DNA of 64,000 bases from Sphyrna mokarran. Taxonomy: Eukaryota. Location of the stretch: NCBI GenBank assembly GCA_024679065.1, contig JAGIQG010000007.1, positions 124,682,001 through 124,746,000 of the forward strand. Reading direction: 5' to 3'. Below are positions 5,644 through 61,699 of the stretch, one piece after another (the first letter of the stretch is position 1; each line of letters opens with the position of its first letter). A program made the position numbers and the translations under genes. A model generated the notes under the pieces. It was not told the origin of the DNA, searched no databases, and saw nothing but the letters and a program-made list of their open reading frames with translations.

Positions 5644-5960
5644 TCATTGAATCCCTACAGGGCAAAAGGAGACCATTCAGTCCATCGAGCCTGTACAGAT
5701 CACAATCCCAACAGGCCTCATTCCTATAACCCCACATATTTATCCTGCTAATCCCCTGATGCTAAGGATCAATTTCGCATGGCCAATCAACATAACCCGC
5801 ACATCTTTGGACCATGGGAGGAAACCAGAGCATGAGGCGGAAACTCACACGGACACAGGGAGAATGTGCAAACTCTATACAGACAGTCACCTGAGGCCAG
5901 AATTGAACCTGGGTCCTTGGCACGATGAGGGAGCAGTGCTAACCATTGTGCCACTGTGCC
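5644..5960 (-). mobile_element. HE1-type V-SINE, full length, CR1-type tail
   Basis: tRNA-like head with A/B-box-like motifs, V-domain body, and tail ..ctgtagggattcaatga on the minus strand. Confidence 0.9.
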
Positions 5961-6409
5961 GAGGGAGTGGGAACCTCTATCATTCTGCGTAGGGATCGGG
6001 CTGGCAATCCAGGTGGTAACTTGTTTCAGTTGGTGTCTATGATATCTGAAAGGTGTCCTGGACATCACCATTTAGATGGTTCCTGCCTCCTGAATCTCGA
6101 AAATGGAAGCGCCTCAATATTGATGATGGACAGGATTCTCTCCGAAAAATTTTAAGTGCTGAGTTCACTAAAAAGAAAGTAACTCCCATTGTTTTTTTGA
6201 GCAGAATTTTCAAAGTGAATCTCTACACTACAGAGAGATTTATGCTGTAAATCCTATTCCCAGTGGAAGGCTGGCAACATAGAGCTAAGCAGGCCACTGT
6301 GCAGGAACCGATTGTCAGAATGGAAATCAGTGCATGCACAGTGACCTCGCCCTGCCAGCCTTCCGATCGCAGGCCAGCCCCACAACCACACGTTGCTGGG
6401 CTTGCAAAG

Positions 6410-28722: not shown

Positions 28723-29744
28723 GGCTGGGAATCTCCCAGCTCGTTGTGCCTCTCAAGTAGCACGGTGAACCAAGTAGAACAGTAAATATCTTTAACTGGA
28801 TTCGAGACCCAGTGTCCACTTTCATCGCCAAGGCCTTTTTATTCAGCGTAATCAGCTCGGCGCTGGAAACCGGAGTGCAGGTGATTACCAGATGGAAATA
28901 GCAATTTCCAGATTGTTAGCAGGATAATTACATGGAAATAGGAGTCTCCAAGTCTTGATGTAAAGATGCTGGCATTGGACTGGGGTAAACACAGTAAGAA
29001 GTCTGATAACATCAGCTCAAATCTAACCGATTTATTTGATAGTAAACTCTCAAGCTTTCGACTCCATGGCATTTGTCAGGCCATAGAGTCGAAAGCTTGC
29101 GAGTTTACTAACAAATAAATTGGTTGGATTTAAACCTGGTGTTGTCAGACTTCTTACTGAGTCTCCGAGTCTGCCAGCATCTTTCCTGTCCCTCCACTGC
29201 TGGAAGAAGTTCCCAGCAGCAGGATTAACAACTGCTCCACACTAACGTTGAACAGGCATCCTCATCCCAATGTGGGAGGCAGAGGCAATTGAGACTCTCC
29301 CAGGAGGATGGAGGGAAAGGGGAAGATGTCCCCTGGGCAGTGCAAGCCTGGCACCTTGGCACTTCCCATTGGATGCCACTAAGGGGACAGGAGACATTGG
29401 GAGGTGGGGCTTATTGGAAGGATTAATCAGTGATAGAGGCAGGGGACCCACTGCCACTCTGCGAAAGGATTGGTGGGGGAGGGAATGAGTGGACGATTGG
29501 GGCTGGGGCAGGGGGGATGCAGAGCAGAACTGGCCGTGGTGGGGAGAGTAGAGATCAACAAGGCTGGCTGGTAAGGTCCAGTAAGCCAATGATTGGGGGC
29601 AGGGAGGGATGTCGGGAATGCTGGCAATCGAGGGTGTGTCGGGAGACCAGTGATTGGGCGTATGGGGGGCGTGGAGAGGAGGCAAGTGTTCTCCCCGTTT
29701 TCTTGTACGTTGAGCACTTGGGTTTTTTTGGGAGAATCTCAACC
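28723..29744. mobile_element. TIR-bounded non-autonomous DNA transposon (PIF/Harbinger-type) with 3-bp TSD
   Basis: Left ggctgggaatctccc versus reverse-complemented right end ggttgagattctccc; aat on both flanks. Hosts a PLE fold-back insertion. Confidence 0.65.
28956..29159 (-). mobile_element. Fold-back Penelope-like pLTR insertion
   Basis: Inverted arms 28992-29070 and 29080-29159, plus a ~37-nt unpaired tail. TSD gagtctcc(a/g)agtct at 28942-28955 and 29159-29172. Decayed hammerhead cctgacaaatgccatggagtcgaaagc on the minus strand. Confidence 0.8.
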
Positions 29745-34875: not shown

Positions 34876-34995
34876 TAAGAAGTCTCCAAGAAGATTGCGC
34901 ATATCGACACAGGCATCAAGTTTTTGCAGAGATACAAGAAAGCAGATTGACTTCTTACTATGTTTACTCCACTCCAATTCCGGCATCTCCACATC
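34876..34995 (+). mobile_element. Chimeric Penelope-like mini-insertion
   Basis: TSD aa(g/a)ctgaaccag at 34864-34875 and 34996-35007. Contains a short inverted arm agtaagaagtc, a 63-nt open frame SKKIAHIDTGIKFLQRYKKAD, and the pLTR end gacttcttact..ggcatctccacatca. Confidence 0.7.
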
Positions 34996-36255
34996 AAACT
35001 GAACCAGGGCAGGCGTCTCTTCTGAACCATTCAAAAGGTGCTCCCACACCTTTGCCAGCTGACCTGTTAACCGTCCACATGTCAAAACAGACCCCTTTCA
35101 AGATAGATCAGGGCAGGCTGGTGACAAAGCGAAAGAGAAGAAAGAAAAAGGTTGAAGCTGGGTGATGACATTTTCCAAATAGTATCGTTGTATGAGGCAC
35201 AACTGAGAAAGAGGTCTCAATCTAGGAATGGATCTTTTTGATTCAATTTTATTTTTATGCACTGTTTACCATTGTTCAATATGTATGCAAATGCTAGATT
35301 AGAGTTTTAAAACAACAGAAATTAATTCATTGATATTTTTCAATTTAGTCCATGCATATAAAACTACCTTTTTGTAAATTAGCCAGTGTCCAATTTTCAT
35401 TTCCATTGAAATCAATGCCAGGATGACTATTACAAGAATTTAGCATAATTAAAAGATTAAACAAGACTGTGGAAAATATAAGGCAATTTAATTTTTTTTT
35501 AAGGTAGATGTAACTGCAAATTAAGGGAATTAGTGCAATTGTAAAGATTTTTTTGGGAATAAGGAGGCTCAATCTGCAAATGAAAAGAAAGCTGAAAGGG
35601 ACATTAAGGCGGCTTATTATAAGATGTAAATGAGAATGATAAGAGGGATCATTTTGACTTTGGATGACCATAAAAATGGATGATAGCAATTCAACAGCCC
35701 GTGGAAGTCGATTCAAATGAAAATCAAGGAGATGTGAGATGAACAAATAGTTGATTCAATATCACCAGATTTACACTGTCATTCAAAATCAAACTTACTC
35801 ACATGGGCTTTTATAAATGCAAAAATAAAAAGATGGTTAAAGAAAGAATGAATTTTATACATGAAGGGGGACATTGTTTTGTATTTAAGTTTAATGGGAT
35901 GGCCAAGAGCTTAATGTGTGTGTGGCCTTAATTCGAATATAGTTAATTAAAATGAGATTGTGCATGTACCAGTGGCTGCTGTAAATACTGCAGTGGAAAG
36001 AATGACTCATTTGGACTACATACGGAAATGCCCCAACTTTCAATCCCAATGGCATGGATCTTATTGTTCTGAAGGAAGTTGAGACTAAGTAAAAAAATCT
36101 TCCCAAAATGGAAGTTTCATTGTGGAACAGGAGGATAGAAAATGCTAATTGTTGCTGAAATGAGGGGGGTAGGAGGAAGCCAGGTATTTATAGGCCAGCT
36201 CGCTTTATACCCATCATGAGTAATATGCTGGGGCTGGAATTTTTGTCCCTGTATG

Positions 36256-41410: not shown

Positions 41411-42095
41411 GTATCCAAACAAAACTGCAAACTCTGACCTGATCCCACCAGAGCTAATCTACACACTCCAAGACTAGCAAAATCACTCTCAAGTGGGGAC
41501 AGCTCCCCATGTATGAAATGTGCTCTGCCTCTATTTCCACCGCTGGGAAATGGAGAAGGCTGCACTTCCCGTTACCACAACTGCAGTGGACATATTCATG
41601 AGACATGGAGTCACGGTGCCTGTGAAGTCAATGACAGCTACTGACTTAATCAAGGCATGGGTTGATCCAGAATATTCAGCAATGTAAAGAAATTTAATCA
41701 GGGTCACATCAATCAAATGTGTTTCTTTTCTTCCCCATGGTCAAGGGTTGCAGTTTTCACAGCATAGTGAACCCTCAAACGCCAATTAAAAAATGTTGGG
41801 ATTGTGATTGCAATTTGCTCATTACCTTATTTGTTGCCTCACTGCCTGCCACTCAAGTCCTGGATGATGGGCAAGGCCTGGAATATTTATTTGCTGCATC
41901 TCTCCACTGATACTGTGTCAGATTTGCTGAGTTTGTCCAGATTTTCTGCCAACAATGACACTGTGGGTGCAGCTAAGTTGAAAATAACTCAAAGCCAAGG
42001 TAAATCAGGAAGGGCAGCACAGTGACACAATGGTTAGCATTGAGTAAAGTTTTACAACACCAATTTTAAATCCAACCAATTTATTTGATAGTACA

Positions 42096-42132
42096 TCAGC
42101 GAGCTTTCGACTTTTTGTCTTCGTCAGGCAAA
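42096..42132 (-). ncRNA. Minimal type I hammerhead ribozyme motif (mirror copy)
   Basis: Minus strand tttgc-CTGACGA-a-gac(aaaaa)gtc-GAAA-gc-TC-gctga. Confidence 0.7.
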
Positions 42133-42157
42133 TGCAGTGTTCTGGTGTGCCACTACA

Positions 42158-42194
42158 TTTGCCTGACGAAGACGAAAAGTCGAAAGCTCGCTGA
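42158..42194 (+). ncRNA. Minimal type I hammerhead ribozyme motif
   Basis: tttgc-CTGACGA-a-gac(gaaaa)gtc-GAAA-gc-TC-gctga. Intact core, 3-bp stem II, palindromic AGCT stem III region; predicted cleavage after 42189. Confidence 0.7.
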
Positions 42195-43201
42195 TTTACT
42201 ATCAAATAAATTGGTTGGATTTAAAATTGGTGTTGTAAAACTTTACTGAGTTTACCCCAGTCCAATGCCGGCATCTCTACATCATAGCATTGAGTGTCAG
42301 AGACCCAGGTTCATCTCAGCCTCAGGTGACTTTTGCACTTTCTCCTCTGTCTGCATGGGTTTCCTCCCAGTGCTCCAGTTTCCTCCCACAGTCCAAAGGT
42401 GTGCCGGTTAGATGGATTGACCATGCTAAAAATAGTAGGGATTAGTAGAGTAAATACGTGGGTTTCTGCGGGATGGGGGCTGAGTTGTCAGTGCATGTTC
42501 TATGGGCTCAATGACCTCTGTAGGGATTCTATGATTATAGTCATTGTTGTTGACTATTCATTTTTCAAATGCTGATAATTGCGGGAAATAGGAGAGACTG
42601 AGGACAATGAGCAATGCTGCAGAATGTGCAGTTCTCTGTTATAGAGTGAGTGGATGTTGGAGGGATGGGGATGATGGCTGGGTAGTGAGGTTAAGGGGAG
42701 AATTTTGAGACATCACTGATGTAGTTCATCAAATAGGAGATACATAATCCATCATGCTCACTGACAGTTCATCAAGTATTCTGTAACACTGTTCAGAAAA
42801 CAAAACAGAGAATTTTGTTTCTATCCACAAATTTCACCTGGAATATGAAATTATTTTCCTAACCTTAGAGTTGAGCACCAATCTTCGACCTGGCATTTCC
42901 AACATGTAAGGAATCTCCAGTGTTTGTAATGTATGTCAGAAGTGTGAGATTACTTTATGCAAATGTTTTCAAGATTTAAAATAAAGAGGAGAATCATGGT
43001 CAATGTTTCAGGAACAACATATGTTCCTGAAAAACATTACAAAGGTCATCCTTCAGTTAGAATGTATTTGATACACTGCTTATAAAATTGTATTAGCTAT
43101 CAATCCATTCTACTGGGCAAGACTACGCACCAACATTTTCACTGAAAAATTATATGAAGGTAAGCTTATTAATATTTATCTTCTGTAACCAAACTACTAT
43201 T

Positions 43202-61312: not shown

Positions 61313-61674
61313 TTCATGTCACACTATCTGTAACCCCCATGATTTGCCTAGCTTTGCAAAACCTCACTTACTGTGCTGTCCGGAAACAATACACATCTCT
61401 TTAACCTGTGCTCAGTGCTCCTTCGACTCACATTGTCGGCCACTTTAAGACTTGAATAGCAGGTTAGGTGTAAAGATTTGCATTCTAATCAGTAATCTGT
61501 AAACAGTCTGTGCTGTGATATGTGCTGTTTGAGACCAGAACACCTCATTGACCTGACAAAGAGGATAACCTCGAAAGCTTGAGTTTACTATCAAATAAAT
61601 CAGTTGGACTTAAACCTGGTGTCGTCAGACTTCTTACTGTGTTTACCCCAGTCCAACACCGGCATCTCCACATC
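61313..61674 (+). mobile_element. 5'-truncated Penelope-like element: ORF end, 3' region and pLTR with decayed hammerhead
   Basis: Starts FMSHYL* (stop 61331-61333). Hammerhead remnant CTGACAA-a-gagg(ataa)cctc-GAAA-gc at 61553-61578. Same pLTR end as the 29, 35 and 42 kb copies. TSD atttcac(t/c)aggag at 61300-61312 and 61675-61687. Confidence 0.82.
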
Positions 61675-61699
61675 ATTTCACCAGGAGCGAATATTTTTC

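Follow-up and report, generated by a model that had tools for sequence, protein, structure and literature searches.

A palindromic insertion carrying two hammerhead motifs in Sphyrna mokarran as a probable insertion product of a Neptune-like Penelope element

The closest described counterparts of the locus considered here are the EN+ Penelope-like elements (PLEs) Pen2 and Pen2a of Adineta vaga, for which the accessible text of PMC3846280, together with the scheme in PMC8557442, describes an inverted, 5'-truncated pLTR copy with a tail of 30-40 bp at one end, a short TSD, a pLTR that overlaps the ORF start, and partial tandems. All of these features recur in the Sphyrna mokarran family, where the tail measures 37 nt. 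There are also differences: both copies of the palindrome in our window (the whole 64,000-nucleotide stretch analysed, positions 124,682,001 to 124,746,000 of contig JAGIQG010000007.1) are so short that the pLTR alone remains, the TSDs are 11-14 bp as against 8-10 bp in the A. vaga examples of that text, and the family prefers a palindromic, non-microsatellite site. A second point of reference is PAc, a Poseidon element of Anolis, in which, according to the available portions of PMC11167929, two RT start sites close to the pLTR-ORF junction have the tail between them, as appears to be so here. PAc, however, prefers AT-rich 5'-ATT-3' sites, whereas genomic sites here are bipartite (CTG-N16-CAG), and its ORF starts inside the ribozyme, whereas the ORF here starts ~95 nt past the cut site.

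Two further systems bear on the ribozyme motifs. The hammerheads of metazoan PLEs, as far as the accessible text of PMC4209133 describes them, share with ours the CUGANGA box, an extra base between positions 9 and 10.1, the G10.1-C11.1 pair, a palindromic 15.2-16.2 without loop 3, and variable, covarying stems; the window subfamily departs from them in its 3-bp stem II, its stem I mismatch, and in having motifs on opposite strands that are predicted to mask each other. Non-LTR retrozymes, in the part of 10.64898/2026.07.22.740005 available, are likewise ORF-less, pLTR-derived units of a few hundred bp with a type I hammerhead; they are head-to-tail tandems with ribozymes on the same strand, whereas the window unit is head-to-head and of no fixed length.

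The insertion occupies 42035-42295 and interrupts, near its head, a host SINE-like repeat at 42013-42430 (forward strand). That it had entered a SINE head was already proposed in a sequence-only reading of this DNA, and the flanks do join into a SINE-like head, with an uninterrupted relative at 5770-5975 on the reverse strand. Its inverted arms, at 42043-42139 and 42151-42247, measure 97 nt each and differ at three pairs (42155/42135, 42174/42116 and 42196/42094), the same values as first claimed. The TSD of 11 bp is an exact direct repeat, as had been stated (42035-42045 on the left, with its last 3 nt also matching the end of the inverted copy as a microhomology, and 42285-42295 on the right), and the unpaired 37-nt tail is present where expected, at 42248-42284 on the forward strand and on one arm only, a tail of the type that appears in the accessible text of PMC3846280, PMC8557442 and PMC11167929. 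What had been read as an 11-nt spacer is, by contrast, element sequence: at 42140-42150, 10 of the 11 bases agree with what lies upstream in the parent element, read as its reverse complement. The inverted, tail-less pLTR copy is thus in fact 108 nt long (42043-42150, reverse strand; counted from the 3' end of the element, it covers -145 to -37), and immediately next to it lies the direct copy of 134 nt (42151-42284, forward strand). The latter stops where the element normally has its 3' end; in a tandem copy the ORF start codon stands there. In top-strand order, the parts are TSD, antisense from -37, junction, sense to 0, and TSD, and this copy of the PLE has no ORF of its own. The surroundings offer little else: no tRNA gene was called within the 64-kb window, and no host gene was identified among the 80 longest of its 117 frames, which gave one low-complexity repeat match only; the frame at 6257-6631 matches the Pfam prion octapeptide repeat at 34.5 bits and is probably a tandem repeat read in frame. 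The locus is ordinary transposon debris, a known kind of PLE insertion product.

The same early reading suggested a PLE family as the source of the unit, and on this point it is supported: arm plus tail make up the pLTR 3' end, and longer copies reach an ORF with RT and GIY-YIG domains. Used as a genome query, the right arm with its tail returned 2129 candidates, and the best 40 scored were full-length matches at 96-100% identity. Longer copies, 96-99% identical in the arm, continue into the RT and GIY-YIG ORF, and the upstream sequence they have in common extends for 1.4 kb or more. One of them, L171 (4136-7163), is a near full-length tandem unit of 3028 bp that reads pLTR, ATG, ORF, pLTR; its N-terminal 402 codons are open before stops and a frame change break the frame, and Pfam recognises RVT_1 at 39.5 bits (cut-off 29.6) and GIY-YIG at 24.3 bits (cut-off 22.6). 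The element's usual 3' end coincides with the ORF start codon, and 698 places in the genome run on into the ORF start. Two hallmarks of EN+ PLEs were found, namely a pLTR repeated before and after the ORF in the partial tandem L171, and an inverted 5'-truncated copy with a tail of 30-40 bp at one end and a TSD. In the translations of L013, L024 and L171 a CX4CxxC motif precedes the endonuclease, and a CX2-5CxxC within the RT-EN linker marks Neptune and Nematis in the accessible text of PMC8557442, whose proteins likewise have a C-terminal GIY-YIG, cysteines inside the motif and a CX4CxxC linker before it. The assignment to the Neptune type depends on this linker motif, which Nematis has too, and we therefore say Neptune-like; to judge from these sequences, the parent is probably a Penelope element of this Neptune-like type, present in abundance. 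No match came from searching PDB sequences with the RT piece.

Several other traces of the family were noted along the way. The window holds an older direct pLTR copy at 61313-61675, 80% identical to L171 and without an inverted partner, and at 34883-34996 an ORF-start piece (64 nt, 91%) is fused to a pLTR tail, an internally deleted mini-copy. In L031, L032, L034 and L037, long PLE copies lie inside, or next to, nearly intact ORF fragments from a different RT family of the LINE type. Two readings of the unit were set aside at this stage. A DNA transposon of the MITE kind was rejected, given arms that lead on into an RT ORF and ends that are not symmetric, and so was the idea that one subfamily might be a short non-autonomous element, since each of the three subfamily groups has copies that reach at least 450 nt upstream.

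To place the window copy among its relatives, we consider the palindromes as a class. A genome-wide pattern for a head-to-head joint within 30 nt directly 5' of the ribozyme matched 417 times in forward and 418 times in reverse orientation, giving ~418 palindromes as against 16,493 single motifs. Forty-nine of the palindromes were examined, the window copy and 48 from the first-listed places on contigs C1, C2 and C113, with arm ends taken as BLAST end points against one reference copy. Among the 49 short palindromes, the end of the longer arm falls at 0 to -2 in 46, and that of the other, tail-less arm at -30 to -37 in 41; TSDs could be called for 46 of 48, and 38 of these TSDs are 11-14 bp. 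Short palindromes are one end of a wider range, in that a tail-only sample (74 of the 698 places) contained an inverted segment in 49 of 74 cases, the arms ranging between ~30 bp and 2.6 kb. In a few inverted copies, a minority (L113, L115, L121, L130, L141 and L158), both arms carry a tail, and at 28956-29182 the window contains an older stub, likewise head-to-head, that belongs to a related subfamily and whose second tail is degenerate.

The exact junction of the window copy is unique in the genome, and two further places have its unmutated form; the three places with this type of junction belong to three different subfamilies, which argues that palindromic units are mostly made afresh at insertion. 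The arms of any one copy are alike: the mean distance is 2.3 within, as against medians of 7-17 between (44 copies; of the 49, 5 were left out because their arms were short or they had more than one junction). The two arms of a copy thus look as though they come from the same subfamily, which would fit a single RNA template and would fit fold-back copying equally well.

Junctions are also unevenly distributed along the element. Relative to single 14-mers, palindromes number 603 of 64,453 at -88 (0.94%), ~418 of 16,493 at -134 (2.5%), 62 of ~8,600 at -151 (~0.7%, the denominator being estimated from 36 of 69 sampled motifs) and 20 of 16,607 at -197 (0.12%). There is accordingly a peak just 5' of the hammerhead, 21-fold over -197 and ~3-fold over its neighbours, a slope rather than a wall, and these ratios are rough because each 14-mer samples a different mix of subfamilies. 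Either the 5' end of the RNA or stalling of the RT at the ribozyme fold could produce such a peak. We also asked whether junctions gather there because the spot is the target motif that the element itself uses, and dropped the idea when no TG-N16-CA spacing was seen there by eye.

That target motif is found at the insertion sites themselves. With TSDs called without regard to the flanking letters before scoring, TG-N16-CA is centred on the TSD at 47 of 92 sites over three sets, compared with 2-2.5% of random positions. The palindrome set gave 28 of 46 sites (shuffled mean 0.63), and a tail-sample set, in which a TSD was callable in 29 of 72 cases, gave 12 of 29 (shuffled mean 0.39). A third set, 17 cases from 62 tails scanned, gave 7 of 17, with 5 of 9 for inserts longer than 400 bp; the random-position background is 2.2-2.5%. 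Because it was the palindrome set that first drew attention to the motif, the tests are the other two sets; some of the target sites counted share one position of a host repeat and do not count as independent. Sites that match have CTG(G)-N14-(C)CAG as their fuller consensus, with the TSD usually the central 12 nt, give or take one. The window site has both halves, NTG at 42030-42032 and CAG at 42298-42300 (both forward strand), but they stand 15 apart where 16 is the mode of the family, and the site was counted as a non-match; at 5770-5975, the uninterrupted SINE head carries the TG-N16-CA spacing at the position hit in the window. L067, L119, L127 and L160, and also L168 and the window, show host SINE-like repeats that separate insertions entered at the same positions. 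We found no description of a PLE target of the TG-N16-CA type in the literature that was accessible, and the available portion of PMC12910113 holds nothing on PLE target sites. The linker of Neptune and Nematis is tied to a microsatellite bias in the accessible text of PMC8557442; the sites here are of the TG-N16-CA type instead. Overall, the family prefers a mirror-symmetric site, and a likely reason is that the enzyme has two parts and copies from both of the cut strands.

Taken together, we believe with considerable confidence that the locus is a single insertion, two 5'-truncated pLTR copies head to head within an 11-bp TSD, likely built at the moment of insertion and not derived from a palindromic parent. 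How such a product might arise can be sketched. A dimeric element protein would nick both strands of the symmetric site ~12 nt apart, and each nicked 3' end would then prime reverse transcription on element RNA, one at the tail end and the other ~35 nt inside. Both cDNAs would usually end 0-15 nt upstream of the hammerhead, possibly where the RNA has its 5' end, and would then be joined head to head, with the hammerheads carried along as passengers of the pLTR. The layout of two cDNAs head to head resembles L1 twin priming. The order of TSD, antisense from -37, junction, sense to 0 and TSD is what would be expected of two target-primed cDNAs, one per nick. Components of this scheme have been described for the anole PLE, where, in the accessible text of PMC11167929, two RT start sites bound the tail, both strands are nicked and extended, and a dimer is predicted. 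In its most specific form, our proposal is that a dimer reads the 22-bp CTG-N16-CAG and nicks it 12 nt apart, that two cDNAs off the 5' pLTR of one RNA, begun at the two start sites that bound the tail, run off just upstream of the hammerhead and are joined, and that some palindromes, such as L050 and L052, may re-insert as units; we offer this version tentatively, at somewhat below an even chance.

The strongest competitor is fold-back, or self-priming, in which a target-primed cDNA snaps back near the hammerhead and copies itself, with the tail set at resolution; the outcome would be the same type of by-product. Self-priming has been proposed for palindromic junctions (PMC3846280, accessible text), many of the junctions here are symmetric to within 1-2 nt, and the closeness of the two arms of a copy is as this route would have it. 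Moreover, L074 (G000:C2:63245776-63246098) contains four alternating copies of one junction, turning inside the hammerhead and bounded by a 13-bp repeat, a structure that requires fold-back copying of the DNA product and not two cDNAs alone; fold-back copying thus also happens. Folding back of a tail-primed cDNA predicts, however, that the tailed arm always reaches further 5', and this is seen in 17 of the 49 palindromes, whereas in 26 of 49, the window copy included, the inverted arm reaches further (the two are equal in 6 of 49). The two-fold symmetry of the target site also speaks against it, and we consider fold-back an unlikely explanation.

A different possibility, close to one raised at the outset, is that the unit belongs to a palindromic family of non-autonomous, retrozyme-like kind, whose members are transcribed and which the PLE protein re-inserts whole. 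The ~418 similar short palindromes might suggest as much, and trans-mobilisation by pLTRs is described in the available text of PMC3846280. Also in its favour is a clonal-looking pair, L050 (G000:C1:73385174) and L052 (G000:C1:79089943), which lie 5.7 Mb apart and have an identical ~225-bp core, a complex junction and a private arm difference in common, with different TSDs and with tails on opposite arms. Here at least one palindrome must have been copied from another, by conversion or remobilisation, and the pair may keep a weak form of the remobilisation idea alive. Its junction, however, has only these two copies genome-wide, all subfamily groups also contain long copies, and the window's junction is unique, its unmutated form being found in two other subfamilies. 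Nor did we find the defining trait of retrozymes given in the accessible text of 10.64898/2026.07.22.740005, at least two tandem units with hammerheads on the same strand, the copies here being inverted with one motif per strand; and, L050 and L052 excepted, there is no fixed multiplying unit. The retrozyme-like reading thus fares poorly, and we regard such a family as improbable. Whether the copies form a self-propagating family or are one-off by-products had been posed as the deciding question, and the continuum of arm lengths and junctions answers it for the most part in favour of by-products, with that one pair as the exception.

The ribozyme motifs themselves are clear in sequence. The pattern CTGANGAAG-N8-14-CGAAA occurs once per strand, at 42163-42185 (+) and 42105-42127 (-), and two matches were seen in 0 of 100 shuffles. 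The full minimal type I motifs, from the 5' to the 3' strand of stem I, span 42157-42195 on the forward strand (CUGACGA, an extra A, a 3-bp stem II, and GAAA-GC-UC) and 42095-42133 on the reverse strand, with predicted cuts after 42189, as anticipated, and after 42101. The core had been called intact on both strands, and its letters are; the 3-bp stem II and the U.U mismatch in stem I nonetheless place it among the weaker forms. An Rfam check proposed for these motifs found nothing in the window that reached the gathering score, and none of the 21 matches with E up to 10 belonged to a hammerhead family; the sub-gathering matches (miRNA, UTR) were rejected as hairpin-driven shape artefacts. The case for the minimal form lies in the motif and in covariation. 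Among 213 motif instances in the fetched loci (a count for which part of the core was fixed by the pattern, which takes in both, non-independent arms, and which includes at least one spurious match), stem II is at least 3 bp in 192, with varying sequence and length, and compensatory forms occur in stem II, several of them, and in stem I. In class, the motif fits the PLE-type minimal type I hammerhead, whose self-cleavage is predicted to be blocked within the palindrome.

Whether either ribozyme could fold in a transcript of the locus is another matter. A contest between ribozyme and hairpin had been envisaged, but in both directions the antisense arm comes first, and in the folding model the hairpin wins by 56-65 kcal/mol: forcing the hammerhead fold is predicted to cost 63.5 and 65.3 kcal/mol in the whole insert and 56.2 and 60.6 kcal/mol at a pause just after the motif, compared with 5.6 and 1.3 kcal/mol in single arms. 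With the arms head to head, the two motifs are therefore predicted to stay paired shut, silenced by a ~100-bp hairpin in either transcript, and they cannot form a cis dimer. One presumed-RNA run gave no depth on the unique flanks of the locus and depth on its repeated parts only, and the runs compared with the locus yielded no bridging contig and, among the joints listed, no empty-site joint. A host-used RNA switch, with ribozyme set against hairpin or the duplex serving as an editing or Dicer substrate, is the least probable reading: transcription of the locus would give rise to a near-perfect ~100-bp duplex, and the core letters are intact in both arms, but the ribozyme fold is disfavoured even at the pause, the copy is ~2% from its relatives so that intact letters reflect youth, neither flanking depth nor a host gene was seen in the run and frames just described, and metazoan minimal hammerheads showed no monomer cleavage (PMC4209133) or required protein (PMC11167929) in the accessible text of those sources.

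Regardless of the exact route by which the two cDNAs would be joined, the family data bear on a point left open in the available text of PMC8557442 and PMC11167929, namely how PLEs make inverted pLTRs and tails, and they do so with a target that differs from the AT-rich or microsatellite preferences those sources describe. The symmetric target and the ~12-bp stagger, common to short and long inserts, provide a concrete DNA substrate on which two-sided priming could be tested. If our proposal is true, this would be a retrotransposon with a bipartite, sequence-selective DNA target, and its short palindromic stubs would be a genomic record of PLE insertion.
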